Shown piece by piece: positions 23,400-47,973 of a stretch of DNA of 64,000 bases. A program made the translations under genes and the position numbers. Under the pieces are notes generated by a model that saw nothing but the letters and a program-made list of their open reading frames with translations, was not told where the DNA came from and did no database searches. This DNA is from Vicinamibacteria bacterium (GTDB lineage Bacteria; Acidobacteriota; Vicinamibacteria; Marinacidobacterales; Marinacidobacteraceae), in the NCBI GenBank assembly GCA_963555995.3, contig OY821641.1, positions 1,664,001-1,728,000 on the forward strand. Reading direction: 5' to 3'. Numbering within the stretch: position 1 is the stretch's first letter; each line of letters opens with the position of its first letter.

Positions 23400-23819
23400 T
23401 CACGCCGCCCACGGGTTGATGATGGGGACGCCGCAGTTCCTGAAATGCCTGACGTTCCGCGTGGCGACGGAGGCCCCGACAGAATGCGCGATCGCCGCCA
23501 TCTGGCAATCCGCATGCCCGATGGGATCGCCGGCAGATCGCCGGCTCGCTCCGACATCGGCGTAGGCGCGCGCCGCGTTGCGGTCGAAAGGCAGGATGCG
23601 GCCGGCAAAGTCCGTTTGGAGCACCTCCTCGATCTGCGCCCGAAGCCGATCCCGCCGGCGTCCGGGCGGCAGGATCGCCGCTCCATAACGCAACTCGGCC
23701 TCGGCGATGACGGAGAGGAAGACCTGAGGCACGGGTTGGGCCGCCAGCCATGCGAATACGCCGGGGTCCGGTTCCGGCCGCATGAGTTCCGAGACGACGT
23801 TCGTGTCGAGCAGGATCAT
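23400..23819 (-). CDS. vapC: VapC/FitB PIN-domain toxin
   Basis: MILLDTNVVSE, AELRYG, ADCQMAAIA, ATRNVRHF, INPW. Confidence 0.95.
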   Translation of the reverse strand: MILLDTNVVSELMRPEPDPGVFAWLAAQPVPQVFLSVIAEAELRYGAAILPPGRRRDRLRAQIEEVLQTDFAGRILPFDRNAARAYADVGASRRSAGDPIGHADCQMAAIAHSVGASVATRNVRHFRNCGVPIINPWAA

Positions 23820-32860: not shown

Positions 32861-34333
32861 ATGTCTGAACGCCACCCGGAACCCGCTACGGAGAGCGAAG
32901 CGGCGCCGCCGCACGACCTCCCCCGGGTCGTCATCGTCGGCGCCGGGCAGACCGGCCGGGAGCTCGCGCGCCAACTCGCCGGCGAGCGGCGGGTGGTGGT
33001 CCTCGACACCGACCCGCAGAAGCTCGAACGCCTGCGCGAGACCGCTCCGCACCAGACGTTCGAGACCCTGACCCGCGACGGAACGAGCGCGCTGTCCCTG
33101 CGCGCCGCCGCCGGTGACGGCGCCGAGTGGGTGATCGCCGCCACCGACCAGGACGGGGTCAACATCGAGGTCTGCCGGGTCGCGGCCGCGCTGAGCCCGC
33201 GGCCGTCCACCGTCGGCACGCTGCGCGATTCCCACCGCGCCGGGCGGCTGCGCGCCACCGGCGCCCAGTGCATCGCCCGGCCGGGGGTGATCGCCAACCA
33301 GATCCGCAACCGGATCGAACGCTCCCACCAGGTCGAGACGTCGCTCGGTCTCGGCCGCGGCGAGATCCGCGAGATCCAGGTGCTCCCCACCTCGCCGGCG
33401 GTGAACGTGAAGCTCCGGGACCTCGGCGCCCGGAAGTGGCTGGTCGCGGGGATCTACCGGGGCGGGCGGTTCGTGGTCCCCGACGGCGACGCGGTGATCG
33501 AGGCCGGGGACCGGCTCCTCATCACCGGCGAGCCCGAGGTGGCGCCCGGCGCCGCCGAGTTCCTCCGCGAGGGGAAGTCCCTCTTCCCCCTCCAGTTCGG
33601 CAGCCACATCGTCGTCTTCGCCGAGCGCGAGCTCCCCGAGGTGGCCTGGCGGGAGGCCGAGTACCTGTTCCGCACCTCGCGGGCGCACCGTTTCCGGATC
33701 GTGGCGCCCGACGGCGTGGAACCGCCGCCGGACCTCGGCGTCCCCGCCGAGCGCCTGGCCCGGATCGTCCCCGGTGACGATGCCTTTGCGGCCGCCCGGC
33801 CCGATGCCGGCTGCGTGGTGATTGACCGGCGCGAGCCGTCCTTCCTTGCCCGGATCGGCCTCAACGCGGCGCGCTTCCTCGCCACCATGGCGCGGTTCTC
33901 CTGCCCGGTGCTGATCCCCGCCGCCAGCTTCCCCTGGGAGCGGCTGGTGATCCCGATCACCGACGTGGAGGCGACCCTCCGGGCGGCCGACACCGCGATC
34001 GGCCTCGGCCGCCAGTTCCGGATCCCCCTCGCCGCCGTCCTCGTCACCCCGCCGGCGTTCATCGGACGCGGCCTCGAAGGCACCGAGGACGTCGCGTCCG
34101 TCCTCGCCGCCATCGAGCGGATGGCCGACCTCTACCGCGTCCGGGTCCCCATCATCCGCGCCGAGGGCAACCCCCCCCGCCAACTCACCCGCCTCACCGG
34201 CCCCCGCGACCTCCTCGTCCTCGGCTACGACCAGGGCCACGCCGGCTCCTTCTTCCGCCCCGACCCCGCGGTCCACATGATGATCCGAGCCCGCGCCTCC
34301 GTCCTCGCCCTCCCCATCCCCACCCACCACTAG
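32861..34333 (+). CDS. TrkA-N/TrkA-C (RCK) protein fused to USP-like domains
   Basis: VVIVGAGQTG, IAATDQD..N, VPDGDAVIEAGDRL; C-terminal SCPVLI / ASVLAL USP-type ends. Confidence 0.8.
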   Translation: MSERHPEPATESEAAPPHDLPRVVIVGAGQTGRELARQLAGERRVVVLDTDPQKLERLRETAPHQTFETLTRDGTSALSLRAAAGDGAEWVIAATDQDGVNIEVCRVAAALSPRPSTVGTLRDSHRAGRLRATGAQCIARPGVIANQIRNRIERSHQVETSLGLGRGEIREIQVLPTSPAVNVKLRDLGARKWLVAGIYRGGRFVVPDGDAVIEAGDRLLITGEPEVAPGAAEFLREGKSLFPLQFGSHIVVFAERELPEVAWREAEYLFRTSRAHRFRIVAPDGVEPPPDLGVPAERLARIVPGDDAFAAARPDAGCVVIDRREPSFLARIGLNAARFLATMARFSCPVLIPAASFPWERLVIPITDVEATLRAADTAIGLGRQFRIPLAAVLVTPPAFIGRGLEGTEDVASVLAAIERMADLYRVRVPIIRAEGNPPRQLTRLTGPRDLLVLGYDQGHAGSFFRPDPAVHMMIRARASVLALPIPTHH

Positions 34334-36300
34334 CCGGAAGTTTCGGGCCCTGAATCGGGCCAAGCGACCGAGTGTCATGGAGTTAGGGGTGTTTCGGGAT
34401 GTAATATGTAGCCACTAATATGACTTGACATGAGTCGCTGTGTCCCTAATGCTACGAGGTATGCCGCCGCGAAAATACGCCGTCCACGTAGCCACAACAC
34501 AACGACACTACAAGGGCAAGACCTACCGATCCCACCTCCTGCGCCGAACCTTCCGCGAAAACGGGAAGGTCAAACACCAGACCCTCGGCAACCTCTCCCA
34601 CCTGCCCGATCCGGTCATCACTCTCATCCGCAGAGGACTCAAGGGCGAAACCCTCGTCGCACCCGACGACGCCTTCGACTGCCAGCGCAGCCTCCCCCAC
34701 GGACACGTCGCCGCCACCCTCGGATCCCTCCGACGCCTCGGACTCCACTCCCTCATCGCCCGCGCCCCCAGCCGGCTCCGCGATCTCGCCGTCGCCCTCA
34801 TCGTCGCCCGCGTCATCGACCCCCGCTCCAAGCTCGCCACCGCACGCGCCCTCAACCCACAAACCGCCGTCTCCTCCCTCGGAGAAATGCTCCAACTCGG
34901 CGACGTCGACCAGCACGAGCTCTACGACGCCATGGACTGGCTCCTCCGACGCCAGCCCGGCATCGAACAGCGTCTCGCCCGCCGCCACCTCGAAGACAAC
35001 ACCCTCGTCCTCTACGACCTCACCTCCACCTACGTGGAAGGAACCCACTGCCCCCTCGCACAGCGCGGCTACTCCCGCGACGGAAAGAAGAACAAGCTCC
35101 AGATCGTCTTCGGACTGCTCTGCTCCCCCGAGGGCTGCCCCATCGCCGTCGAGGTCTTCGAGGGCTCGACCAGCGACCCCAGGACCGTCGCCTCCCAGGT
35201 GCAAAAGCTCCGCACCCGCTTCGGCCTCGCCCGCGTCGTCCTGGTCGGCGATCGCGGCATGCTCACCTCCGCCCGCATCCGCGAGGACCTCGCCGGTGTC
35301 GAGGGGCTGCGCTGGATCACCGCCCTCCGCGCCCCCACCATCAAGAAACTCCTCGCCGACGGGACCGTGAACCCCTCCCTCTTCGACCAACGGGATCTCG
35401 CCGAGGTCACCTCCGACGACTTCCCCGGCGAGCGCCTCATCGTCTGCCGCAACCCCCGCCTCGCCGCCGAGCGCCGCCGTAAGCGCAACGAACTCCTCGG
35501 CGCCACCGAAGCTCTTCTCGAACCCATCCAGGCGGCCACCCAACGCGAACGGCGCCCCCTCCGCGGAAAGGATCACATCGGCGTCCGCGTCGGCAAGGTC
35601 ATCGACCGCTACAAGGTCGCCAAGCACTTCCAGACCGACATCACCGACGACTCCTTCTCCTTCGAACGGCTCTGCGAACAGATCGCCACCGAAGAACAAC
35701 TCGACGGCCTCTACGTCATCCGCTCCAACGTCGAGCCCGAGCGCCTCGACGCCCCCCAAACCGTCCGCGCCTACAAGAACCTCTCCCGCGTCGAGCGCGC
35801 CTTCCGCTCCCTCAAATCCGTCGACCTCAAGGTCAGACCGATCCACCACCGACGCTCCGACCGCGTCCGCGCCCACGTCTTCCTCTGCATGCTCGCCTAC
35901 TACGTCGAGTGGCACATGCGAAACGACCTCGCAACCCTCCTCTTCGACGACCACCACCCCGAAGCCGCCGAATCCCTCCGGGACTCCGTCGTCGAACCCG
36001 CCCAGCGCTCGCCCGCCGCCCAGAAGAAGGCCGCCACCAAGCGCACTCACGACGGCCTCCCCGTCCAATCCTTCCGGTCCCTCCTCGCCGATCTCGGCAC
36101 CCTCACCCGAAACACCATGCGGCTCAACGACGCCGAAACCACCTTCACTCTCTACGCCAACCCCACCCCCGTCCAGCAACGATCCCTCGATCTACTCCAC
36201 GTCTCACACCGAATGTAGCCACTACACGACAACACCCAAATCCCACAACTCACTCAAAATACGGGCCTTACACGAAATCAGGCCCGAAACTTCCGGCTAG
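34330..36300 (+). mobile_element. IS1634-family insertion sequence
   Basis: Perfect 20-bp terminal inverted repeat CTAGCCGGAAGTTTCGGGCC, possibly a 16-bp IR plus a CTAG target duplication; encloses a transposase. Confidence 0.92.
34461..36218 (+). CDS. IS1634-family DDE transposase
   Basis: RENGKVKHQT, LYDLTSTY.EG, GYSRD, VGDRGM, YKNLSRVERAFRSLKS, RVRAHVFLCMLAY; exact start uncertain (34440-34461). Confidence 0.93.
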   Translation: MPPRKYAVHVATTQRHYKGKTYRSHLLRRTFRENGKVKHQTLGNLSHLPDPVITLIRRGLKGETLVAPDDAFDCQRSLPHGHVAATLGSLRRLGLHSLIARAPSRLRDLAVALIVARVIDPRSKLATARALNPQTAVSSLGEMLQLGDVDQHELYDAMDWLLRRQPGIEQRLARRHLEDNTLVLYDLTSTYVEGTHCPLAQRGYSRDGKKNKLQIVFGLLCSPEGCPIAVEVFEGSTSDPRTVASQVQKLRTRFGLARVVLVGDRGMLTSARIREDLAGVEGLRWITALRAPTIKKLLADGTVNPSLFDQRDLAEVTSDDFPGERLIVCRNPRLAAERRRKRNELLGATEALLEPIQAATQRERRPLRGKDHIGVRVGKVIDRYKVAKHFQTDITDDSFSFERLCEQIATEEQLDGLYVIRSNVEPERLDAPQTVRAYKNLSRVERAFRSLKSVDLKVRPIHHRRSDRVRAHVFLCMLAYYVEWHMRNDLATLLFDDHHPEAAESLRDSVVEPAQRSPAAQKKAATKRTHDGLPVQSFRSLLADLGTLTRNTMRLNDAETTFTLYANPTPVQQRSLDLLHVSHRM

Positions 36301-36326: not shown

Positions 36327-36350
36327 GGAGCGCCGGTGTTCACACCGGCA
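36327..36350 (+). repeat. REP (GTGT variant), left boundary of the island
   Basis: GGAGCGCCGGTGTTCACACCGGCA, perfect inverse of 45357-45380. Confidence 0.9.
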
Positions 36351-36408
36351 CCGTCCCCCGCAGGGGGACGAATTCCCAACGTGACGCGCCCTCACGGCGC
36401 AACGGCTT

Positions 36409-36564
36409 GGAGCGCCGGCTTCAGCCGGCACAGCCCGCCGCAGGCGGGCGAAGGGATGGACCGTATCCGTGCCGATGGGCCACCGCCCGGAACATCCGAC
36501 ACCACGGCGATTCGCCCTTCCGCCGCGCTCCGCGCAGCGGGTGCCGGCTGAAGCCGGCGCTCCC
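36409..36564. repeat. Second REPIN family (inverted GGAGCGCCGGCTTCAGCCGGCAC pair)
   Basis: Perfect inverted ends; the left ~100 bp recurs degenerately at 39811-39910. Confidence 0.85.
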
Positions 36565-36581
36565 AGCCCACGCGCTACCGG

Positions 36582-36989
36582 GATCATGCCGCGATCCGTC
36601 GCCCATCATGCCCCGATCCGATCGCGCCGTTTCGCACCGATCATGCCTCGATCCACCGGCCCATCATGCCTCGATCCGAGGCGATCATGCTCCGATCCAC
36701 GCGGTTTTCGGCCTCGATCATGCCTCGATCCGTTCCAGAGTCCGGCAGCGACAATCTCCGGCTGCATGGACGAGGCGGACCGATCCAAGACCGAAAAGAA
36801 CGCTCGGAAAGCCGAAATCAGCCGAATTCGAGCCGGTTTCGGCACTCTCTGACCGATTCCAGCCCGTCTGAACCGACTCGGCGCGATCCGCATTCCGACC
36901 GTTTCCGGACGCCGATCATGCCCCGATCCGCGCCGATCATGCCCCGATCCGCCAACATGCCTCGATCCAGCGGGATCATGCCTCGATCC
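36582..36989 (+). repeat. Array of ten 16-bp direct repeats, consensus GATCATGCCYCGATCC
   Basis: Copies start at 36582, 36604, 36639, 36662, 36683, 36716, 36914, 36935, 36953 and 36974. Confidence 0.9.
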
Positions 36990-37224
36990 GTCTCGCTGGC
37001 GAGCCTCGAGCACCATGCAGTGGATGCAGTCCGGAAGCCTCGGGTCAGCGAAGCCGGGGCCGCTGCCGTCCGCCCGGAGAGTGACGGGGACCGGCGTGGA
37101 GACCGCCGGGCCGGGTTCAGGGCGACAGCAGGCGAAGGACCGCAACGGTGATGCCCACACCTGGCCCGCTCGATCAGCCCCCGCGACCTGCTCGTCCTCC
37201 GCTACGATCAGGCGGCGGCGCTGG

Positions 37225-37380
37225 CGGCATAACGCCGTCACTTCCACCGTGACCAATGCTCGTGCAGAAGCCATCAACTCCCGCATCCAGTGGCTCAAAT
37301 AAGATGGCTTGCGGATACCGCAACCGCGCCCGCTTCCGCGAGGCGATCTACTTCCACCTACGCGGATTGGACCCCCGTGA
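37225..37380 (+). pseudogene. ISL3-family transposase C-terminal remnant (frameshifted)
   Basis: TNARAEAINSRIQWLK, then a 1-nt shift to KMACGYRNRARFREAIYFHLRGLD, the typical ISL3 C-terminus. Confidence 0.8.
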
Positions 37381-37401
37381 CGCGCTGATATTGCCACTAC
37401 T

Positions 37402-38316
37402 TCAGAGCTGTTCTTGCGGGTGTCGCCGCCGCAGCGGCTGACTCAACCTCACGTAGCGTCTGGGGTCCTGGAACTCCCACGACGACGTAGCCAGATGCAG
37501 TTGTAAGTCCGCCAAGAACAAGTTCAATAACCTGCCCGCGGCGACCCCAGGATCGGAGTGCGTTTCCTGAAAGGTGGTCCAGCAGTTGGATACGGCGGCG
37601 TCATTCTCCTCTCGATAGACCTCTGCTTGGACACCAAACGTCGCTTGCCCGTTCTTCATCCGATGAGGTGCACAACTGGCCCCGCCACGCTCACTGTCAA
37701 GAATCAATACCCACGCATCCTCGGGTGGTATACCGATTCCTCCGACGTTCTTCGCCAGGTTTCGCAAATCACAACTTCCCATCCCCAACGCAATGAGGAA
37801 CTTGTAACACGAATTGCGCCACTTTCTGCCTGTAACTGGAGCCGTCAAGTCATCCAGAGATGTGTCCGGCGAGGGGCGTCCGAATCGATTTGAGTTTTTG
37901 ATGAGAAGACCGTCCTGCATTCTCTCCATGTCTTGAATCATCTCGACATAGCTCTCCAACACGCGAGCGTCGTGGTACCAGCTGCTCTTGACCTCACCAA
38001 CTGCCGCCACGCATTCCGCTCGCACGAGCTCCGTTGCACCCTTGTCGCGGCTATACATCGTTGCTGTCGGAAGATCGCGAACAACGATGATGTCGATCTG
38101 CTTGGATTTCCTTCCGTCGGCACGAACAACGTGTCCTTCGGTTACGCGATACTGACTTCCTACCACGCCTGCGATCCAGTCCCGGACGGCCTTCTCGGGT
38201 CCATCTCCTAGCGCACGTATGTTGTCCTTGCCTCCTGTCGCGCTGGCCCTCGCCCGCGCGACAAAGAAGTCCTCGGCTATCGCTGCGTACAGTTTGTCTA
38301 CGTCGTACGAGTGCAT
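37402..38316 (-). CDS. DUF6602-like PD-(D/E)xK nuclease-domain protein
   Basis: LGDGPE, Y.VTEGHVV, SKQIDIIVV, AECVAAVGEVKS; lower GC than the backbone. Confidence 0.72.
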   Translation of the reverse strand: MHSYDVDKLYAAIAEDFFVARARASATGGKDNIRALGDGPEKAVRDWIAGVVGSQYRVTEGHVVRADGRKSKQIDIIVVRDLPTATMYSRDKGATELVRAECVAAVGEVKSSWYHDARVLESYVEMIQDMERMQDGLLIKNSNRFGRPSPDTSLDDLTAPVTGRKWRNSCYKFLIALGMGSCDLRNLAKNVGGIGIPPEDAWVLILDSERGGASCAPHRMKNGQATFGVQAEVYREENDAAVSNCWTTFQETHSDPGVAAGRLLNLFLADLQLHLATSSWEFQDPRRYVRLSQPLRRRHPQEQL

Positions 38317-38327
38317 CGCGGAATACC

Positions 38328-38456
38328 CTAGCTCGTGTTTGTCGGCGAGGAAAGAAGGGCGAAGATGCCCGCAGCCCGGCCTGTTGCGTTCAGGTTGATG
38401 ATCGCGCTCGTGTCCGCGACGATCCCACGCCACGACTCACGCAGTGAGTGCGACAC
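38328..38456 (-). pseudogene. Truncated PIN-domain gene (42 codons)
   Basis: GTG start overlaps the ImmA stop; VSHSLRESWRGIVADTSAIINLNATG is a PIN N-terminus, ending at a premature TAG. Confidence 0.65.
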
Positions 38457-39603
38457 GTCCCGCAGCTTCGAGCTTCTCCTCCTCGGCGCCCTCGAGAAGC
38501 TCGCGAATCTCCACCCGGCCGAGGTCGAGCAGACTGGCGAGCTGGCCCTCGCTGTACAGATCGCGCGTCCATGCCTCTCTCACGAGCAGGGCGAGACGCT
38601 GAGGCACCCGGCCTCCGGCGGCCGGCTGCATCCATCGTGCGTCGGGTGGACGCCCGATGACCTTTTCGCTCTGAGCGTCCGTGATTCCACCGTTCTCCTG
38701 GAACCAATCCCACGTCCCCCGCCGCACCAGCCGCAAGTCTTCCAGCCGTCGCACGATGGCTTCTCGCGACACCGCGAATGCATGCGCCAGCAGGATGACA
38801 TGGCGCCGCGTCAGGTGGGACTGTCCGGCGGTGATTTCCTCGAACCGCTGGCGCACGGCTCGACCTGGAGTCAGAAACGACCTCGCGAAAGCGGATGCGT
38901 ACCGCGCTTCCCGTGACCGCGAAGCGTCCTGTTCCACGAGTAGTGCGGGTTCCCCCCGGCTCGTGATGAGACGCCCGAGTTCGTGAGCGCCGGTCTGGGC
39001 AATCCGCCCCACTGGATGATTCGCGTTGAGCAGTACGCAAGCGCCTGCGGCCTCGGTGTACGCGAACAGCCCGGAAATCGCCTCCGCCATCCCTCGCACA
39101 TAGACCCGCATCCCGACCTGCAACTCCAGGAACGGCACCATGTCGAGAACCGGCCCCGACCCCAGTCCGAACCAGGACCGCAGCTCCTGGGCATCCTCTT
39201 CCGCCTGCGTCGCCACGTCGCCCGGACGAATCGGCCTCTCGCTCGGATACCGATGCTTGCGCAGGACTCCGAGAATGTTCTCAAGCTCCACCTCCGCACT
39301 GACGAGCCTGTTCAACAACTGTGCGGCGTCCTCCCGGGCTGGTTCGGAACTCTTCGGGAGCTTCCGGAACCGGGGTACGAGATCCAGATGAACGGCCTCG
39401 CGCCGCAGGATTGCGTTTACGGAGACTCCATAGAGACGGGCGAGCTTCTGGATCTCCTCACTGCGCACCCGGCGGTCCCCCTTTTCGATGGCGACGAGGG
39501 TCGTACGGGCAACCTGGATCTGCTCCGCCGCGTCACTCTGCCGAAGCCCCGCCGACTCGCGCACCGTCCGGAGGCGCTGGCCGATCTGCCGATTCGAGAG
39601 CAT
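38437..39603 (-). CDS. XRE HTH + ImmA/IrrE (DUF955) metallopeptidase-like regulator
   Basis: IGQRLRTVRESAGLRQ..AA HTH; ISGLF, LLNANHP; AHELGR in place of HExxH. Confidence 0.88.
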   Translation of the reverse strand: MLSNRQIGQRLRTVRESAGLRQSDAAEQIQVARTTLVAIEKGDRRVRSEEIQKLARLYGVSVNAILRREAVHLDLVPRFRKLPKSSEPAREDAAQLLNRLVSAEVELENILGVLRKHRYPSERPIRPGDVATQAEEDAQELRSWFGLGSGPVLDMVPFLELQVGMRVYVRGMAEAISGLFAYTEAAGACVLLNANHPVGRIAQTGAHELGRLITSRGEPALLVEQDASRSREARYASAFARSFLTPGRAVRQRFEEITAGQSHLTRRHVILLAHAFAVSREAIVRRLEDLRLVRRGTWDWFQENGGITDAQSEKVIGRPPDARWMQPAAGGRVPQRLALLVREAWTRDLYSEGQLASLLDLGRVEIRELLEGAEEEKLEAAGRVALTA

Positions 39604-39733
39604 GTCGCCTCCTGACGCAGTCGCGGTGACGGCGGCAAGCTCCGATGCCGTCCGTCGTTTGTGGCCTATGTCAGCAGGTTGATTCACTTGCCCGACTTTG
39701 TCAACCCAACTCGGGAGATCGCGCCGGCGGCCT

Positions 39734-39910
39734 GGAACGCCGGTCTCCAGACCGGCACGCGGCCCGCAGGGCCGCAGAGCGCGCGGCGCTCGCCCGTCGG
39801 GAAGACGCGTACGGCTCGGAACTCCAGCTCCCGCCGGCCCAACTCGCCGCAGGCCGGCGACGGGATGAACCTTGTCCGTGGAGATGCGCCACCGCCCGCA
39901 ACATCCGGCG
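39734..39910 (+). repeat. REP plus degenerate copy of the 36402-36500 REPIN arm
   Basis: GGAACGCCGGTCTCCAGACCGGCAC followed by GCCGCAGG..GGGATG.ACC...CCACCGCCCG.AACATCCG. Confidence 0.75.
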
Positions 39911-40399
39911 CTTGACATCCTGCGCACCCCGCGAGTCATGAAAACGGCGGAGACGGCTGGAGCACCGGGACTGCATGTTCACGGCAACCGGGCCCTGAGG
40001 GGCTTGCGACAGGCTGCTCGGACTCGGTTTGGTGGCCATCCCCACCGGCCTGCCGGCGGCGGCTCTCATGAAGGGAACTGCAGAAGATCGAAGCGGACGC
40101 TCGATCGAAGAACCTGTCCGGCATCCCTGACGGACTCCCTCCCGGCCGGGGTGGTCACGACGGGAGCCGGGGTGGGAATGACCGGAGCTCGGGGCGGATT
40201 GACCGGAGCTTTGACCATTGCTCGGACGCATAGGTCAAGCGGGACAGGCACTCCCCGGCAGCGGAAATCCCGATTGCGGCGAGCGTCGAGTGGCCGGACT
40301 CCAAATCCGGGGGTCCGGTTCGTGGCCGGGCGCGGAGAGCCACTCGGACCGGATGCGCAGGTTCATGGCCTCCGCGCCCATCATTCGCGCCGAATCAGC

Positions 40400-41356
40400 C
40401 TATACGAACGTCTCTACATACCGCGGGTGATACCGCAGGAGTTCCTTGTAAGTGCTGATCTCGTCCGGCCCGATACCCAGCGCGTGGAGTTGTCCAATCT
40501 GTTTCGCATTCTTCCTAGGTGCGGTTGCCGCGAGGTCGAGGAGGCCACGTTCCTTCTCCGTGTAGTTGAACTGTCCAATGCTGTACAGATCGTTCGCGCT
40601 CGCTGCGAGAAAGGGCATCCGCTCCTCGAGGCGCCCCACCAACCGTTCACACCGATCTCGACTGTCGAATACGCCGCCCAGAGTGATCATTTCGACGCTG
40701 TCCCGATACCGGACCCGAAAGAACATCCGGAACACTCCATCCTTTCGTCCCCTGAATCCTCTCCGAAGAGCCGACGAAAGGACCTTATCCGCCGCCTGCC
40801 AGAACCCGGAGTCCTCCACATCCGCCACTTTAAGGGAAACAGCGAAGTCTCCCAGCGTCGTTCTCAATTCGGCGAGTCGGTACGCCGTCCCTTCCCGTCG
40901 CAAGTGTTTGGGTGGACGCGCGTCCACGGTAACGAACACGAAGTCTCCAGCGGTGGCCTTCCTTCCAAGAGAAACTACGTCATTCGTTATGCGAGGTCCG
41001 ATGCACGCATCGTAGTCGAGCCAATAGATGCTTCCTCCTGTCGTCCGATCCTCCAGAAGGAAGTCCCCGACACTCCGGTTGTTGACGCTTATGAAACCGA
41101 ACGGACGGTTGAACTCCGCCCTGTGGAACATCTGACGGTCATGTTCCAGGCTCACCATCCGCTCGATCCGGAAGTACTTGTGCATGATCCTGAAATCGTA
41201 AAACCGGTTGCCTCCCATCCCGACATATCGGTACGAAGAAAGGTCGAATCCTACCTCCGTCGCCGTCGCCAGGCAATCCACCATCATGCGTCGCTCGCGC
41301 TGCTTCGCGGGCCGAAGATCGTAAGAGATGCCCCTAGCGCTCGAGTCTGACGCCAT
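40400..41356 (-). CDS. Putative SAM-dependent methyltransferase-fold protein (uncharacterised O-methyltransferase-like family)
   Basis: SYDLRPAKQRERRM, YVGMGG (motif I-like), SLEHD (motif II-like), IYWLDYD; abuts the ATPase stop. Confidence 0.65.
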   Translation of the reverse strand: MASDSSARGISYDLRPAKQRERRMMVDCLATATEVGFDLSSYRYVGMGGNRFYDFRIMHKYFRIERMVSLEHDRQMFHRAEFNRPFGFISVNNRSVGDFLLEDRTTGGSIYWLDYDACIGPRITNDVVSLGRKATAGDFVFVTVDARPPKHLRREGTAYRLAELRTTLGDFAVSLKVADVEDSGFWQAADKVLSSALRRGFRGRKDGVFRMFFRVRYRDSVEMITLGGVFDSRDRCERLVGRLEERMPFLAASANDLYSIGQFNYTEKERGLLDLAATAPRKNAKQIGQLHALGIGPDEISTYKELLRYHPRYVETFV

Positions 41357-42691
41357 CTAGTCCTCGCGGACTTCGTTACGAAGAAAGAAACGAAACGTAT
41401 GTCGACCCACCTGAGCCCCGCTCATATCGGGTCGTGACAAGTATCTGGCAATCTTGAGGACTTGGCTCCATTTGGCGTTGTATTGAATCTTGATGTTGTC
41501 ATCCGTCATCGAAACAGGCGGTTTTTGGAATGGCCTAGCTTCTCCAACGGACGCACGGATGGCGTCCACTGGTTTCTCCCCGTCAAGCCCCAGCTCCGCC
41601 AGCGTAAAGTCGGATCCCTTAGTGGGATAGCGGCTGTCCAGAAAAGCGATAACGGACCTACCCACCGTGCCCATGCACAGCTTTGTGGACTGCCAGACGG
41701 CACTATCCTCGTTGATCCTCGACTTCGTCGTATCCCATGGCAAGTGGTCCGGGTATCGGGACACGAAATGAACCATCCCCAGGAAAGGCCGGTGTTTGGG
41801 CTGGAAGATGGGCAGGCCGTTGTTCTGCCATCCGGTCAACGCGGTCTTGTCCGCACTGATGACGGCTCTCCCGTTGCAGAAGACAAACCAACCGGCTCCG
41901 GCATCGCGGTACTGCTTGCCCTCGGGCGTACCCAGACCTGCCAGCACCGTATACGTCACACCCTCTTCGGAACCGCTGTCCCTGGCTGTGTGTTTGCTGA
42001 AGCCCAACTCCGTGGACGTGACTCTCTCGCCATTAACGAAAATTCGAACGAATTTCTTCAGGAAATAGGCATACGTGGCGGCGATACGGGTCTTTAGATT
42101 GGCCTCGAACGCCTCGTCCAGACGGCTGGCCGTTTCGTGATGGAGCTCGGTAATGACGATTCTCGTGCCACACTCGTTGGCGCTGGCCGCTGGTCGCTCG
42201 GAAATCGGAAATTGCCAGCGGGGCTCATTCTTCTTCGACCACTCATCCACATCCAGATCGAGTTCAAAGCCACCCGATTCATGATCCGATTCGACCTTCA
42301 CGCGGCGCCCGGCTTTGAAAAACGCCCGCTTGAGCCCGAGTCCATAGACCGACAGCCGGTCGGTGTCACTGTCTGTATCGGCGGAACGTCCGAATCGGAA
42401 CACATGTTTCGACGCTGCGGTCAGCGAGATGCCAGGGGCCGTGTCCGTGATGGAAATCCGATCACTTGAGAAAACGATCCTGATGTTCGTTTGCGGCTGG
42501 ACCGTGGCGTCATCGAGCACCTTGACATAGTCCTCAGCCGTCTGGAGGCGGTCCGCGAATGGCGCCACGGCAGCGTTGACCGAGTTGTCAATCAGGTCGA
42601 GAAAGGCAGCTTCCAGCGAAATGTCCCGCGTCAGGAGCGAGATGAAGAGCCGTTTTTCCGGGCTCGCGTCGGCGAAGTCCGTAGCAGTCAT
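41357..42691 (-). CDS. GHKL/MORC-type ATPase
   Basis: N-box DLIDNSVNA, G1 DTAPG, G2 YGLGLKRA, G3 GTRIVI; S5-like GWFVFCNGR and LPWDTTK. Confidence 0.85.
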   Translation of the reverse strand: MTATDFADASPEKRLFISLLTRDISLEAAFLDLIDNSVNAAVAPFADRLQTAEDYVKVLDDATVQPQTNIRIVFSSDRISITDTAPGISLTAASKHVFRFGRSADTDSDTDRLSVYGLGLKRAFFKAGRRVKVESDHESGGFELDLDVDEWSKKNEPRWQFPISERPAASANECGTRIVITELHHETASRLDEAFEANLKTRIAATYAYFLKKFVRIFVNGERVTSTELGFSKHTARDSGSEEGVTYTVLAGLGTPEGKQYRDAGAGWFVFCNGRAVISADKTALTGWQNNGLPIFQPKHRPFLGMVHFVSRYPDHLPWDTTKSRINEDSAVWQSTKLCMGTVGRSVIAFLDSRYPTKGSDFTLAELGLDGEKPVDAIRASVGEARPFQKPPVSMTDDNIKIQYNAKWSQVLKIARYLSRPDMSGAQVGRHTFRFFLRNEVRED

Positions 42692-42704
42692 TGGGTAGTT
42701 CCGG

Positions 42705-43622
42705 CTAGTGCATCGCGAAGTGAGGCGGCGCAAGCGCCACCGATTCGTTGGGCGTCGGCACTCGGACAGGACGATCCGGGCGATACCGAAGGGATTCGCT
42801 GGCGAGCGCCTGAAGGCGCGCGGTGGCGAGTTTCGTGTACTTGTCCGAGATGTCGCACCCGATGAAGTCACGCTTCTCGAGGAGCGCGGCGGCAGCGGTC
42901 GTTCCCGATCCCAGGAATGGATCCGCGGCAGTGCCGTCTTCGGGACACAGCGCCACGATCAGCCGTCTTGCGAGCGCGATGGGAAACTGGCACGGGTGGT
43001 CCGTCTTCTCCACGTGATTGGCCTTGACGTTCGGGATGTCCCAGACGGCACCGATGTCCCAGACGTCGCCCGGGTTCTTCCCGAGCGGGTTCCCGCTGAA
43101 CTTGCCCTTGTTCGGGCCCTTGTAGTGTTTCTTGCCCGGATACTTCTGCGGAACGCGTGCGGCATCCAGGTCGAAGAAGTAGTCATCGCCCTTGGTGTAC
43201 CACAGGATCGTTTCGTGCCGGCCGCTGAACCGGCGGCGCAGGTGCGTGCCGTGGGAGAACGTCCAGATGATGCGATTGCGGAGGACGAACGATGCTCCGC
43301 GGTCCATCGCACGCGCCACGGTGTGATCGAGGGGAAGCAGTTGGTTGTCCCGGACATGGTTGCCCAACTGCCAACACAGGCTGCCGCCGGGCCGCAACAC
43401 CTTGCCGATCACCGGGATCAGCGCGTCAATCTTCTCCTCGAAGTCCGAGGCATCGGTGGATTCGTCGTATTCCTTGCCGATGAAGTAGGGTGGAGACGTC
43501 AGCAGGAGACTGATGGATTCGTCGGGAATCGTGCCGAGGAATTCGAGGCAGTCGGCGGTCGCGATGGTCGCGGTCCTTCCGTTGAAGGACGTCGTGGAGA
43601 TGTTCGGTGGGCTGGGAAGCAT
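42705..43622 (-). CDS. Beta-class N4-cytosine DNA methyltransferase (M.BglII-like)
   Basis: TSPPY motif IV before DPFLGSGTT motif I; SGRHETILW, GKNPGDVW, HPCQFP. Confidence 0.92.
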   Translation of the reverse strand: MLPSPPNISTTSFNGRTATIATADCLEFLGTIPDESISLLLTSPPYFIGKEYDESTDASDFEEKIDALIPVIGKVLRPGGSLCWQLGNHVRDNQLLPLDHTVARAMDRGASFVLRNRIIWTFSHGTHLRRRFSGRHETILWYTKGDDYFFDLDAARVPQKYPGKKHYKGPNKGKFSGNPLGKNPGDVWDIGAVWDIPNVKANHVEKTDHPCQFPIALARRLIVALCPEDGTAADPFLGSGTTAAAALLEKRDFIGCDISDKYTKLATARLQALASESLRYRPDRPVRVPTPNESVALAPPHFAMH

Positions 43623-43935
43623 CGTCCGGGGCGGCGGGACGAAGTGTAGGGCATGACTTCGGATGGAGGGGCCATCCGGTGATTCCGGCCGGCCGTCGGC
43701 GTGCTCGCGCTGGTCCGCTGACCGTCGTGATGGCCGTGTGCGGCCTGGGTGGCCGGCCGAAAGCGCCACTCGTCAAGGCAGACACGCGCTGCGGGGTAAC
43801 ACAGCGCGTGGCGTGGCCGATTCCGGTGGCGTGGTCTCGACCGGGAGCAGCGGGCCGGCGCCCGGACGGACCGGGACGTGGGTCCCGCGTTCACGGGGAG
43901 GAGCGCCTTCGGGGCGGGTTTCACGCTGCCGCGCG

Positions 43936-43959
43936 ATGCCAGCCAGAGGCTGGCGCTCC
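43936..43959 (-). repeat. REP (GGCC variant with compensatory changes)
   Basis: ATGCCAGCC-AGA-GGCTGGCGCTCC. Confidence 0.75.
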
Positions 43960-44070
43960 GACGCGGACCTCCCCCCGGAGACCGGCGTTAGCGACCGGAC
44001 CTCCATCCCGTTGGGACGAACCGGAGCGACACCGTGTTGCACGGCCCGGGGATGGCGACCCGACATCGGT

Positions 44071-44090
44071 TGCCATAATCGGTTATGGCA
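44071..44090. promoter_or_regulatory. Operator palindrome upstream of vapBC
   Basis: TGCCATAA-TCGG-TTATGGCA perfect 8-bp inverted repeat overlapping TTGCCA. Confidence 0.6.
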
Positions 44091-44122
44091 TACCTGTTAT
44101 CCTCATGGCTCAGCGGGACGCG

Positions 44123-44344
44123 ATGAAGGAAACGACCACGAAAATCACCGTCCATATCCCGACGGACCTTCTGCAGCAGGCGCGCTCGATTACGGGCGAA
44201 GGCGTGACGAGCACCGTGCGCCGTGGTCTTCGGCAGATCGCCTCCGTCCACGCGCAACAGGAGCTGCGGAAACTGCGCGGGCGGGTGCCGATCTCGCTGG
44301 ATCTTGAGAAGCTGCGCGAAGATCGGGATCCGGACCACCGGTGA
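44123..44344 (+). CDS. VapB-like antitoxin
   Basis: TKITVHIPTDLLQQARSITG...TVRRGL; overlaps the PIN gene (GTGA); start could be 44105. Confidence 0.8.
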   Translation: MKETTTKITVHIPTDLLQQARSITGEGVTSTVRRGLRQIASVHAQQELRKLRGRVPISLDLEKLREDRDPDHR

Positions 44345-44715
44345 TCGCCGCCGATTCGAGTTCCCTGAGCGCGCTGTTTCGGGGTGACGACGGCCCCGAT
44401 GTCGAGCTGCTGGACCAGGCGCTGGCCCAGGGGATGGTCGTGTTACCGCCGGTCGTACTGACGGAGATCCTGAGCTATCCGGTCCTCGAGTCGGAGGTGG
44501 CGGACCTGATCCGCGATCTTTCCCTGCTGGAGACTCATCCGGGCTTCTGGGAGCGTGCCGCCCGGCTGCGCGCGGGCATCCTGATGCGGGGCCTCCGGGC
44601 GCGGCTGGCGGATACCCTGATCTCCCAGAGCTGCCTGGATCACGAAGTGCCGCTGATCACTCGCGACAGGGACTTTCGGCACTTCGCGGAGCATTCCGGC
44701 CTGGTTCTCCTCTAG
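44341..44715 (+). CDS. vapC: VapC PIN-domain toxin
   Basis: IAADSS, VLTEILS, LADTLI, LITRDRDFRHF. Confidence 0.9.
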   Translation: MIAADSSSLSALFRGDDGPDVELLDQALAQGMVVLPPVVLTEILSYPVLESEVADLIRDLSLLETHPGFWERAARLRAGILMRGLRARLADTLISQSCLDHEVPLITRDRDFRHFAEHSGLVLL

Positions 44716-44817
44716 CGGACCCACGATCCCCGGGCGCCGGCGGCGCTCGACGAGGACCGGAGCGACACCGGCGGACCGGAGCGGATGCGCTACGCTAGCC
44801 TGCGGTTCGGGGAACAC

Positions 44818-45108
44818 ATGCCAGAGATCACGCTGCGAGCGAATTTCCACCGTGAACGCGATCAGTGGATCGGATGGTGTCCGGACCTCGATGTGACCAC
44901 CCAGGGCGACACGCGCGGGGAAGCCGAAGAGAACCTGCGGGAAGCCGTCAATCTCTTCCTCGAAACGTGTCAAGCGATGGGAACCTTGGAAGACGTGTTG
45001 CGCGAGGCCGGACTGCTCCCCCCACCCGAGGTGAAGACCTTCCGGATTCCCGTGCCCTGGCTCGTGGATTCGCAGAAGGACACCCGTGCCTCGGCTCCAG
45101 CCCGTTAG
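44818..45108 (+). CDS. hicB: HicB family antitoxin
   Basis: WCPDLDVTTQGDTRGEAEENLREAVNLFLE. Confidence 0.9.
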   Translation: MPEITLRANFHRERDQWIGWCPDLDVTTQGDTRGEAEENLREAVNLFLETCQAMGTLEDVLREAGLLPPPEVKTFRIPVPWLVDSQKDTRASAPAR

Positions 45109-45322
45109 GGTCGAAATCCTGATCAGGGTCTTCGAGGCCGATGGGTGGGCGCGCGCCCGACAGCGGGGTTCGCACTTGAGCATGACCAAACCGGGCCACA
45201 AGCGTCCGGTGGTCATCATCACGAGCAAGAAGGAAGCGGAGACCTGGCTGATCCGAACAAATCTCAGAACAGCCCGGATGAGCCGGGACCGGTACTTCGC
45301 ACTCCTGGAACAAGTTCGCTAG
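45086..45322 (+). CDS. hicA: HicA family toxin
   Basis: GW..ARQRGSHLSMTKPG, the dsRBD-fold GSH motif. Confidence 0.88.
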   Translation: MPRLQPVRVEILIRVFEADGWARARQRGSHLSMTKPGHKRPVVIITSKKEAETWLIRTNLRTARMSRDRYFALLEQVR

Positions 45323-45356
45323 CCCGGACTGCTTTTCGCTGCGCTGCGCGCACCGA

Positions 45357-45380
45357 TGCCGGTGTGAACACCGGCGCTCC
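45357..45380 (-). repeat. REP (GTGT variant), right boundary of the island
   Basis: TGCCGGTGTGAACACCGGCGCTCC. Confidence 0.9.
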
Positions 45381-45405: not shown

Positions 45406-47973
45406 TCAGCGGCCCGGGAGGCGCCGTTTTCCGGAAGCGTTCGCGCCACCGATGGGCGAGCCCGGCGGCCGCTCCGGCCGGCTGGCGTTCGGGTCGAGGC
45501 TCTCGTCGCGGTCCGCGAAGCGGCGGATGTCGGCCACGGCGAGCGTCTCGTGCGGCGTCGCGTCGCTCATGTCGGCGAGCGTCCGGCCGAGGGCCATCAG
45601 GCGGTCCTCGATGACCGCGCGCACCCGCGCCGGGTTGTCGGGGTTCATGGCCTCCCGCATCATGCCGTTCAGGACGCTGCGCTCCGCCGCGTCCTGCACC
45701 ATGCGGCGGTAGCTGCCGTCCGGCTCCGCGTTGCCCCAGGTCTTCTCGACCAGCCGGTCGAGGACCTCCGCCAGCCCCGGCTGGTCCGGGTCGAGCGCGT
45801 GGTTGTTCACGAGGCGCGCCATCCGCTCCGGGTGCAGCAGGAGTTCCACGGTGTAGTCGGCCGAGGTGTCCGCGGCGGCGAGCGGGTCGAAGACGAGCCC
45901 GGTGTGGCCGTCGAACCCTTCTCCGCCCGTTTCCCGGTAGGCCGGGGGCGGGATCATCTCGATGATCCGCTCCGGCAGCGCCAGGAAGTCCGTCTCCAGC
46001 GTGTGGAGGACCATCTCCAGCGCCTCCCGCTGGCGCTCGCCCGGCACGGGCGCGACGGGCCGCTGCCCGTCCCCCCGCACCGCGTAGTAGTACTCCTGAC
46101 CGCCGACGGTGTTCAGCGCCGCCTTCATCTGGAAGCGGTGGTGCAGGTAGAGCGGCACCAGCACCGGCTCCAGCAGCGACATGGGTTCGCCCGTCCGGAT
46201 CACGTTCTCCCCGAAGGCGTCGAGGCCGGCCTGCCGGATCTCGATCTCGCGTCCGAGGTGCCGGACCAGGTCCTGGCCGTTGTCCCAGACCGAGGCCAGC
46301 GGATGCGCGCCGGCGCCGATGTAGTTGTCGGTGTGGGCCATGAACCGGGTCTCGGACATCAGTCCTTCCTGCATGATGGCGTCGAGCCGCGCCGCGGTCT
46401 CTTCCGGCGGGAAGTGGCCGTAGGCCCAGCGGACCGAGAGGATGTCGTAGGAGCCGATCCCGACCCCGTAGGCGTCGTCGAGCTTCACCACCCCGTCCTC
46501 GAGGACCGCGAGCGGCGCCGGGTAGTCCATGACGCTCGCCCGGCCGCCGTAGGTGGAGGCCATGTAGTTGTGCGGGAACCCGATGGCGTGTCCCACTTCG
46601 TGCGCCGAGAGCTGCGCCACCCGCGCGAGCGCCAGGTCCACCGGGGTGGCCCCCTCGCCCACCTGCGCGAGGTAGGAGAAGCCCGGCGCCGCCGAGAGCC
46701 CGCAGGAGTGCGGCCCGTCGGGGTCCGGCGGCAGGCCGACCGGCAGCGCGCCGGAGGCCGCGTCGAAGGGGGCCACCATGCCCACCCCGAGGAGGTGGTC
46801 CTGCCTGAGCCGCAGGCTGCCCAGGTTCACGTTGCCCTTGATGATCTCGCCGGTCCGGGGGTCCCGGACGCCCCCGCCGTAGGACCAGCCGCGGGTGCGC
46901 CGGTGGGTCCAGTGGATCATGTTGTAGCGGATGTCCTGGGCGTCAGCGCCCTCCGGCAGCCGTTCGACCTGGAACGCGTTGATGAACCCGGCGGCCTCGA
47001 ACGCCTCGTTCCACCAGCGCGCCCCCTCGATCAGCGCCGTCCGCACCGGCTCGGGGACCCCGCGGTCGAGGTAATAGACGATCGGTTCCACGACCTCCGA
47101 ACGCTCCGCGGAGGGGTCCACCTTGTGGAGGCGGTGGCGGGAGGCCAGCCGCACCGTCATCGGCTGGTCAATCGGGGTCGCGTAGTCCATGTAGGTCGGG
47201 CCGCCCACCCCGATGCGGGGATCGGCCACCCGGATCTCGAATCCCGGCCCGGGCAGGCGCACGAACGAGTGGTGGTGCCGGAGCGTCACCGCGTCCCCGC
47301 TGGAGGCAACCCCCGAGACCAGCCGACCCGGGTTGTCGCTCGTGAAGGTCAGCATCGTCTCGACTTCGGTGTTGTCGGGGAAACCCTTGGTGTTCTCCAG
47401 GTAGAAGACGCTGCGGCTCCGGTCGAGCCGGAAGGTCCCCTGCCCGGCCCGCGCGATCCGCGCCGCCGAGCCGTGGGCGTCCCGCAGGAGGAAATCGGTC
47501 ATGTCCACCAGCACCCGCTCGCCGGTCTCGGCCGCGACCTCGAACCCCCAGTGCACGGAAGGGGCGAACGCGTCGCGGACGGCGCGAATCTCGTCGGGGT
47601 TGTCGCTTACGGCGCGGTAGCTGTAGTTCGGCTCCATGAGCAGGATGCGCGGGCCGACGCGGACCGGCATCAGCACCGCGCGGCGGCTGATCTGCCCCCG
47701 GTCGAGGCCGATGGGGTTGCTGCCGAGGCCGGACGCGGCGGAGACCGAGTACATGAACTCTTCCTCCATCTCGGCGAACTCCGCGAAGAGGTGTCCGGTG
47801 CGCTCGTCCCAGTAGAGGGACACGAACCCGGAGATCGCGGTCATGCCGGCGGTCTTTTCCTCGATGGTGGGCGGCGTGTCCTGGGCGAGGGCCGGCGCGG
47901 CCACGAGCGCGGCGGCCAACAGCAGGAGGCCCGACCGGAGCAGGAAGCGGGACCGAAGCATCGTCGTCATCAT
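45406..47973 (-). CDS. Secreted zinc-dependent metalloprotease (EcxA-like metzincin)
   Basis: HEVGHAIGFPHN, Met-turn SVMDY, WNEAFEAAGF, DPRTGEII. Confidence 0.9.
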   Translation of the reverse strand: MMTTMLRSRFLLRSGLLLLAAALVAAPALAQDTPPTIEEKTAGMTAISGFVSLYWDERTGHLFAEFAEMEEEFMYSVSAASGLGSNPIGLDRGQISRRAVLMPVRVGPRILLMEPNYSYRAVSDNPDEIRAVRDAFAPSVHWGFEVAAETGERVLVDMTDFLLRDAHGSAARIARAGQGTFRLDRSRSVFYLENTKGFPDNTEVETMLTFTSDNPGRLVSGVASSGDAVTLRHHHSFVRLPGPGFEIRVADPRIGVGGPTYMDYATPIDQPMTVRLASRHRLHKVDPSAERSEVVEPIVYYLDRGVPEPVRTALIEGARWWNEAFEAAGFINAFQVERLPEGADAQDIRYNMIHWTHRRTRGWSYGGGVRDPRTGEIIKGNVNLGSLRLRQDHLLGVGMVAPFDAASGALPVGLPPDPDGPHSCGLSAAPGFSYLAQVGEGATPVDLALARVAQLSAHEVGHAIGFPHNYMASTYGGRASVMDYPAPLAVLEDGVVKLDDAYGVGIGSYDILSVRWAYGHFPPEETAARLDAIMQEGLMSETRFMAHTDNYIGAGAHPLASVWDNGQDLVRHLGREIEIRQAGLDAFGENVIRTGEPMSLLEPVLVPLYLHHRFQMKAALNTVGGQEYYYAVRGDGQRPVAPVPGERQREALEMVLHTLETDFLALPERIIEMIPPPAYRETGGEGFDGHTGLVFDPLAAADTSADYTVELLLHPERMARLVNNHALDPDQPGLAEVLDRLVEKTWGNAEPDGSYRRMVQDAAERSVLNGMMREAMNPDNPARVRAVIEDRLMALGRTLADMSDATPHETLAVADIRRFADRDESLDPNASRPERPPGSPIGGANASGKRRLPGR

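Follow-up and report, generated by a model that had tools for sequence, protein, structure and literature searches.

A defence and toxin–antitoxin island between trkA and a metalloprotease gene of a Vicinamibacteria bacterium, and the REP sequences that appear to bound it

Repetitive extragenic palindromic (REP) sequences, the inverted doublets (REPINs) and bacterial interspersed mosaic elements (BIMEs) that contain them, and the REP-associated tyrosine transposase (RAYT, or TnpA-REP) have been described under the name "REPtron" (PMC8266576, PMC6006769, PMC3333891). We examined an island at positions 36327 to 45380 of a 64,000-nucleotide stretch (the window, whose positions are used throughout) of the 3.80-Mb genome of a Vicinamibacteria bacterium (assembly GCA_963555995.3; contig OY821641.1, here C1, positions 1,664,001 to 1,728,000, forward strand). 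In this island, defence-type and toxin–antitoxin (TA) genes lie between two copies of one 24-nt REP in inverted orientation. A first-pass annotation had proposed that a single REPIN was expanded here by RAYT-driven capture of cassettes, with REP hairpins in an integron-like role. Our analysis suggests that the inverted pair is likely a by-product of normal REP placement and not the machinery of a gene-capture system.

The genome resembles a REPtron in its high-copy intergenic hairpins, which occur as singles, inverted doublets and arrays. There are about 1,200 REP hairpins in 645 clusters, where a Markov control yields 15 per Mb; 88 of 1202 lie inside called genes, and the sequences fold as hairpins. 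Genes were called with a codon-model caller of our own, which overlooked the window's hicA gene. A single RAYT gene at C1:751129-751821 (NF047646, 97 bits against a cut-off of 80) encodes the HUH and Y-x-x-x-N-P motifs, the latter a class-2 RAYT signature (PMC6006769), and carries REP arrays on its flanks; no second RAYT was found in the genome. The variant of the island pair has 28 exact copies genome-wide, of which 11 stand in these arrays, and one inward pair of it encloses the RAYT gene itself, so that the RAYT postulated in the first-pass annotation does exist, with the island variant on its flanks. Of 15 congeners, 12 have a RAYT homologue and 11 carry the 24-mer in exact form, and REP classes differ between relatives, as in REPtrons (PMC3686654). 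The differences from the described systems, known here from sequence, are that the four bases 5' of the hairpin are GGAG, GGAA or GGAC rather than the canonical GT[AG]G, that a second hairpin follows, and that the RAYT gene lies 0.95 Mb from the island. Atypical feet have been reported for some REP subclasses (PMC6006769).

Other described systems offer partial parallels. Stepwise accretion of TA genes at permissive sites has been proposed (PMC13617665) and, as in defence hotspots and variable "spots", TA and defence genes gather here at one permissive site with varying content, insertion sequence (IS) remnants and no resident integrase, although this site is empty in most relatives and punctuated by REPs. 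Restriction–modification genes can be inserted with a long target duplication, and chance insertion between repeats also forms a class (PMC2853133). In the island, likewise, direct repeats of more than 30 bp flank a defence-type module that is shorter than 20 kb and has no mobile gene inside. Here, however, the repeat consists of REP units 81% identical to each other, the nuclease–XRE module between them lacks a methyltransferase, and no one-copy empty allele was seen. REPs have been suggested as IS targets (PMC1525189), and ISs of this genus are found within REP clusters or next to them (G009; C1:2683011), whereas the IS at the island used the trkA stop codon, 26 bp outside the REP. REP deserts have been described (PMC3390384), and REPs are depleted inside accessory DNA of this genome (7 of 52 long gaps against 130 of 338), although the island itself is not REP-poor. 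Sequestration of flanking genes by BIME units (PMC3333891) and a presence of REPs at recombination junctions (PMC3158064) were raised only as possibilities in the text available.

No demonstration of RAYT-driven cassette capture was found in the literature searched, most subscription papers lying outside that search. Integrons comprise an adjacent tyrosine-recombinase integrase, co-oriented and mostly single-gene cassettes, and attC-type hairpins of the bottom strand. The island resembles them in that unrelated defence and TA modules are separated by hairpin-forming repeats. It differs in that its modules hold two to three genes each and run in both directions (−, −, +, +), its repeats occur genome-wide beside core genes, and no integrase was found among the island and flanking open reading frames (ORFs) scanned by profile. 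The window contains no detectable tRNA gene, in keeping with the first-pass annotation, and the 34–46 kb region has no Rfam match.

The inverted pair and ordinary REP placement

The window contains two exact copies of the 24-mer and no more, at 36327..36350 (+) and 45357..45380 (−), as the first-pass annotation had noted, and shuffled sequence contains 0 copies. The left copy, which is followed by a second hairpin, is of the RAYT-flanking variant and stands 26 nt 3' of a duplicated stop codon of a trkA-like backbone gene (32861..34333, +; TrkA_N and TrkA_C by profile), orthologues of which were found in 15 of 15 congeners searched. The right copy stands 25 nt from the stop codon of a Met-zincin metalloprotease backbone gene (45406..47973, −; DUF4953 and DUF5117 by profile). 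With the IS removed, the outer REPs lie 26 nt from the trkA stop and 25 nt from the metalloprotease stop. Throughout the genome, where a stop codon has a REP within 80 bp, the nearest one points the same way as the gene in 353 of 420 cases (median distance 23 bp), and in 81 of 111 convergent gaps with at least two REPs these face inward. The two outermost island REPs face inward because REPs sit co-oriented just 3' of stop codons genome-wide.

The distance between the arms is also unexceptional. When variant labels were shuffled over 440 unpaired REPs, 19.3 same-variant inward pairs were expected at 3–10 kb and 22 were seen (P 0.29); a pair of this kind arose within 10 kb at least once with P 0.10 when this variant alone was considered and 0.84 when any rare variant counted. 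In the congeners G001 and G006, inward pairs of the identical 24-mer, spaced 8.0 and 9.3 kb, enclose genes that are mostly backbone. Moreover, the two arms do not have the form of a REPIN: they are 9.0 kb apart against a median of 137 bp in 149 doublets, their identity ends at the 24-mer, and the sequences inside them are unlike those of two intact REPINs of the same variant. The complete ordinary REPIN of the island lies at 36409..36563, where close inverted REPs (36409, +; 36542, −) form a 35-nt inverted repeat around a 109-nt family spacer with 5 genomic matches. This true REPIN was missing from the first-pass list, as were the IS1634-family element and an ISL3 remnant.

The site in relatives and in a putative second strain

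Contig depths in four runs (three samples of one study, the source sample possibly among them) point to a second strain. Contigs of the inner island had depths of 31–36, 46–49, 66–74 and 6–7.5 in the respective runs, and a backbone contig with the window's own alleles came close to these values (27.6, 38.3, 55.9 and 7.6). The contig with both TA pairs, which begins at 43933, reached 64.5, 104.5, 156.9 and 19, which resembles the depth of trkA (55.7, 84.6, 139.1 and 20.1). In each of the 4 runs, depth thus doubles at the REP unit, at 43929–43962; the genome has a single copy of the TA region. Three other runs, with word shares below 0.2, play no part in this evidence. On the left side, high-depth variant contigs cover 36691 and 36902 and not 37140. 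These depths lead us to infer a second strain in which the left REP cluster region and both TA pairs are retained and approximately 37.0–43.9 kb is missing. The shifts in contig depth in this one study lie at 43929–43962 and about 37.0 kb, not at 36327 or 45380, so that the island does not seem to behave as one block, and the 36327/45357 pair does not delimit a mobile unit. Cargo breakpoints had been predicted to map to REPs; the inferred right edge does fall in the 43937 REP unit, whereas the left one (about 36.97–37.14 kb) is at least 400 bp from an intact REP and close to a trkA fragment and an ISL3 end.

No excised circle or precise-excision joint was present among the 15 of 68 joints listed, contigs being prone to drop rare forms, and no microhomology between the two inferred breakpoint zones was worth reporting (scores 30–35). 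A contig of 101–130 nt that overlaps REP 43937 at about the depth of the second strain was considered as an alternative junction and belongs to another locus, C1:2580895; joints between REP copies (the long-range ones with sides of at most 31 nt) were treated as repeat artefacts. No same-species empty allele was recovered; congeners share the REP of the 36402 repeat but not its spacer.

In the genus, trkA and the metalloprotease gene are adjacent in 14 of 15 congeners, the interval of G006 ending at a contig edge and being excluded from the 14. Twelve of the 14 intervals measure 49–368 bp, that of G008 holds only IS1634, and that of G009 an IS110 together with an array of REPs. Nine of the 14 contain REPs, four contain an inward pair, and none contains the island 24-mer variant. 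The empty site had been expected to be a short REPIN: it is indeed short and often REP-bearing. A REP-bearing empty site is unremarkable, as 167 of 241 convergent gaps of at least 100 bp hold a REP anyway. In alignments, REP 36409 corresponds to the left-hand REP of G014, G015, G002 and G011, and REP 36327 is an extra unit of about 82 bp outside (upstream of) that position. On the right, the unit at 43868..43962 (−; REP 43937–43959; about 10 similar genomic units) resembles the right-hand empty-site unit of G005 and G012, and REP 45357 occupies a position at which four congeners have a different variant; either of the two right-hand units could be the ancestral one. REPs come and go quickly at the trkA stop.

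The content of the site varies throughout the genus and family. G017 and G022, which belong to another genus, hold unrelated cargo (arylsulfotransferase-like and ParA-like, respectively) in a REP-free interval, and the query used gave no RAYT match in either genome. Scanning metagenomes with trkA recovered two loci, both empty sites of other species, and a scan with a 30-mer upstream of vapB gave zero matches. We also observed that L236 and L237/L016, from two species 94.6% alike at the site, differ in that only one has a REP right after the trkA stop; an orphan antitoxin that had been listed among isolated accessory genes beside REPs is present at the same place in L236.

ISs have also used this site. 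The island was described as lying between convergent backbone genes; this holds for the metalloprotease on the right, whereas the immediate left neighbour is an intact IS1634-family element (34335..36295, +) with terminal inverted repeats, a transposase ORF at 34440–36218 (NCBIfam NF033559, 327 bits against a cut-off of 100) and a short target duplication. The element is present in 4 genomic copies with 99–100% identity. It lies outside the 24-mer pair and inserted at the trkA stop codon, which is included in the 5-bp target duplication; the matching duplication here (34329-34334/36296-36301) is 5 bp long as against 6 bp at the other three copies. Further inside, a displaced 55-bp copy of trkA 34181-34235 (37158..37212, +) precedes an ISL3 end fragment (37222..37373, +), which is 86% identical to 5 copies elsewhere in the genome, one intact copy matching NF033550. 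Together, the two pieces (37158-37373) form the scar of an earlier rearrangement, close to where the variable block is inferred to begin on the left. A small inverted-repeat element of about 200 bp, resembling a miniature inverted-repeat transposable element by eye, sits at the trkA stop site in G013, G001 and G008 (L010, L012, L015), and an end similar to it follows one IS1634 copy at C1:2147216 of the studied genome. A two-gene IS in 7 copies (IS21-like by eye) lies inside a tandem REP array at C1:2682594-2685841.

Gene indels, direct repeats and cargo modules

The studied genome was compared with that of G014 over 2.4 of 3.56 Mb (1524 reciprocal best hits, median identity 91%). The island locus is outside the compared part of G014 and thus not among the 196 indels; it was compared via L003. 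In the two sets of gene indels (96 and 100, not polarised as gain or loss), REPs stand at both edges in 8 and 4 cases, with 6.9 and 2.9 expected if independent, and at neither edge in 52 and 70. Identical outer REPs facing inward were found in 0 of 196. Long gaps with a REP make up 49 of 103 at indel edges against 130 of 338 in core DNA (p 0.11), and their depletion inside accessory blocks (7 of 52) is marked (p 0.0003). Enrichment of REPs at island edges, which the first-pass annotation had proposed to test genome-wide, appears as a roughly 2-fold association with indel sites overall; no such association is seen at convergent sites (31/44 against 83/123, p 0.85). The enrichment may only mark transcription-unit boundaries, most of which carry a REP in this genome. 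Nor is it distinctive that isolated accessory genes abut REPs, since 424 of 699 isolated called genes do so, which makes it the rule here, and no REP was found beside two further TA genes of the window (MazF-like, 108-727; PIN, 23400-23819) in the adjoining gaps listed.

The REP positions within the island largely agree with the first-pass annotation (36409, 39734 and 43937), but its "doublets" 36327/36409 and 39734/39811 are same-direction pairs. The REP at 39734..39757 (+) is intact and of an abundant variant with 197 exact genomic copies, and that at 39811-39865 is decayed. The latter belongs to the right copy (39811..39907, +; 81%) of a direct repeat of about 97 bp, whose left copy (36402..36498, +) consists of a REP, a hairpin and a rare spacer with 4 genomic copies, 2 of them here. 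This repeat surrounds the nuclease–XRE module and has the dimensions of a long target duplication; an insertion of that kind is not shown here. Genome-wide, 4.7% of 1444 pairs of co-oriented REP units at distances of 0.5–8 kb share near-identical bodies, compared with 0.5% of distant pairs; among the near-identical pairs listed, many are tandem gene duplications, ISs in arrays, or repeats that bracket core genes.

Direct repeats of REP clusters, 151–448 bp long and 92–99% identical, bracket genes at C1:1104564-1106325, 2275248-2278112, 3228089-3229295 and 686565-691949, and for the genes at the first three places no orthologue exists in the part of G014 that was compared. Tandem arrays at C1:699327-702521, 2003514-2007029 and 671515-673061 duplicate a small coiled-coil-looking paralogue together with a REP unit, and a lone paralogue of this appearance lies between REP-cluster repeats at C1:3228575. 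Elsewhere, two giant ORFs of 19,619 and 15,692 aa at C1:3320783-3426701 look polyketide-synthase-like by eye.

The cargo named in the first-pass annotation is supported by profiles, as is its lower GC content: 63.0% between the 24-mer copies against 74.3% in trkA, 71.5% in the metalloprotease gene and 70.1% in the whole window. From left to right, ten short 16-nt repeats (36581..36988), without a Pfam match and likely kept in the second strain, are followed by a DUF6602 protein with a PD-(D/E)xK/NucC-like nuclease profile (37402..38316, −) and an RmrA-like XRE + IrrE/ImmA (Peptidase_M78) regulator (38437..39606, −). Next comes a triad of a PF20553 (Methyltransf_35) protein (40400..41356, −), a GHKL ATPase (HATPase_c_3; 41357..42691, −) and an N6/N4 DNA methyltransferase (42705..43622, −). 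A vapBC-type pair with a PIN domain (44105..44715, +) and a pair of hicB-like (DUF7387, below cut-off) and hicA genes (44818..45322, +) complete the series. No sigma-70-like promoters were found, and a plasmid search gave 2 weak matches. Relatives of the 16-nt repeats occur in G002 and at C1:3573.9 kb and C1:2278.2 kb. The vapBC pair lies between the sole two genomic copies of a 15-bp direct repeat (44020-44034/44756-44770), and its homology to the vapBC pair of G003 stops inside the right copy (44756-44770).

Homologous modules in congeners are mostly not REP-bounded. Matches to vapBC, hicBA and XRE occur at separate places in 24 relatives. Among 15 TA loci examined, a REP lies within 200 bp of one end in 4 and on both sides in at most one; the best vapBC match (91%, G003) has zero REPs within 1.5 kb, as do 3 of 3 XRE matches, in which the downstream gene differs. 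The complete methyltransferase–ATPase–PF20553 triad is matched in none of the 24 relatives. An alignment search of named genomes from many phyla found 39 PF20553 loci, the weakest of which (L221, 25 residues) was dropped before counting. In the remaining 38, the ATPase is beside PF20553 in 37 and a methyltransferase lies within 6 kb in 34, and no REP of the island type lies within 1 kb of any, this type being the only one sought. A single-protein genome scan for PF20553 gave zero matches, and the ATPase and PF20553 proteins have no PADLOC match. GHKL ATPases in restriction–modification operons have been described (PMC2292703), and the genes at 40400-43622 (also L183-L220) constitute, judging by their predicted products, a candidate restriction–modification-like defence system without an obvious nuclease.

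Weighing the explanations

We regard stepwise accretion at an insertion hotspot, with the REPs as passive residents, as the probable origin of the island. In such a history the trkA–metalloprotease gap would have received the IS, the IS remnant, three defence-type and TA blocks and the REPs separately, and the REPs would have settled beside the cargo rather than captured it. The TA pairs would be older than the 37.0–43.9 kb block, the RAYT would spread and replace REPs, as the literature suggests, and the two outer REPs would match by chance or through one episode of local copying. Cargo entry may have been IS-linked or recombination-based, with REP units perhaps sometimes supplying short homology. 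IS traffic at the site was seen in three species, and the modules are separable elsewhere. Several results weigh against this reading. Orthologous empty sites of indels are REP-enriched (Mantel–Haenszel odds ratio 1.9, p 0.003; logistic odds ratio 2.0, 1.3–3.1), and both long internal gaps of the island hold REPs, compared with 7 of 52 in other indels. A direct repeat with a rare spacer brackets nuclease–XRE, and REP-containing direct repeats of at least 92% identity enclose accessory genes in 4 of 4 cases in the compared part of the genome, one of the four being an IS, as against 4 of 18 at 80–92% (p 0.01). The second allele is read from contig depth, which is not the share of cells, and no contig shows its junction, while its inferred right breakpoint falls in a REP unit. 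With regard to the outer pair, 10 of 353 stop-proximal REPs are of the island variant, so that an independent match of the second arm would occur at about 3%, and same-variant pairs are in excess at 0.3–3 kb (inward 14 against 7.6, P 0.015; same-direction 18 against 7.2). Because of this low match rate and this excess, local copying of the outer REPs in one episode is possible, and the two arms may share one origin. Ordinary REP placement accounts for orientation and position; chance pairing, which the first-pass annotation had named as fatal to its proposal, fits the spacing and, less readily, the match of variant.

Some of these results would fit REP clusters that serve as portable homology anchors, at which modules enter and leave by recombination or long-target-duplication insertion between direct REP units. 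REP-rich gaps would then turn over faster, and the relevant repeats would be the direct ones (36402/39811; 43937/45357) rather than the inverted pair. The 2-fold enrichment at indel sites, the depth step at 43929–43962 in every run, the repeat around nuclease–XRE, the excess of near-identical bodies among co-oriented units 0.5–8 kb apart and the long repeats around strain-specific genes at C1:1104564, 2275248 and 3228089 all point this way, and REPs at recombination junctions have been suggested for Escherichia coli O-antigen loci (PMC3158064). We nevertheless consider such anchoring rather unlikely: the enrichment is not seen at convergent sites like that of the island, comes from unpolarised indels and may mark transcription-unit boundaries only; the inferred left breakpoint is at least 400 bp from an intact REP; the G014 intervals matching the repeats hold no single copy of them; and direct repeats of 80–92% also bracket core genes, as expected from local REP spread. 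A more specific form, in which direct REP clusters are integrase-free landing pads for defence and TA modules through RAYT nicks or RecA recombination and the island is a stack of such events, seems to us unlikelier still. An inner block left by an IS-borne composite insertion or rearrangement (ISL3 or IS1634) appears improbable: the ISL3 end and displaced trkA fragment do lie at its inferred left edge, and the 5-bp duplication of IS1634 is what a rearrangement could leave, but no second IS end was found at 43.6–44.0 kb, and IS1634 is outside the variable block. The least probable account is that one REPIN, 36327/45357, captured its cargo with the RAYT in an integron-like manner. It can draw on a RAYT that has HUH and Y-x-x-x-N-P motifs and whose gene is flanked by the same variant in the same inward arrangement, on the inward pair in the empty site of four congeners, on the low rate at which both arms would match independently, and on the proposal that BIME units capture flanking genes (PMC3333891). 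Yet the variable block is smaller than the island and ends at neither arm; the inferred strain apparently keeps both TA pairs without the inner block; identity confined to the 24-mer, inner sequences unlike the variant's intact REPINs, and a left arm that is an extra unit outside the congeners' REP all speak against a common REPIN, as does the absence of the variant from every congener site. None of the 196 indels is alike, the pairing is at chance level, the modules are multi-gene in both orientations, and G017 and G022 filled the same site without a REP in the interval.

There is no settled answer to why RAYTs and REPs are kept by bacteria; this locus does not demonstrate gene capture. With accretion as the preferred reading, the locus explains how an apparently REP-bounded island arises from ordinary REP placement. 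Its remaining value lies in a natural two-allele locus, a 2-fold genome-wide association of REPs with gene indels and a short list of genes bracketed by direct repeats, and further in a widespread methyltransferase–GHKL ATPase–PF20553 operon, two of whose three genes are without a PADLOC match.

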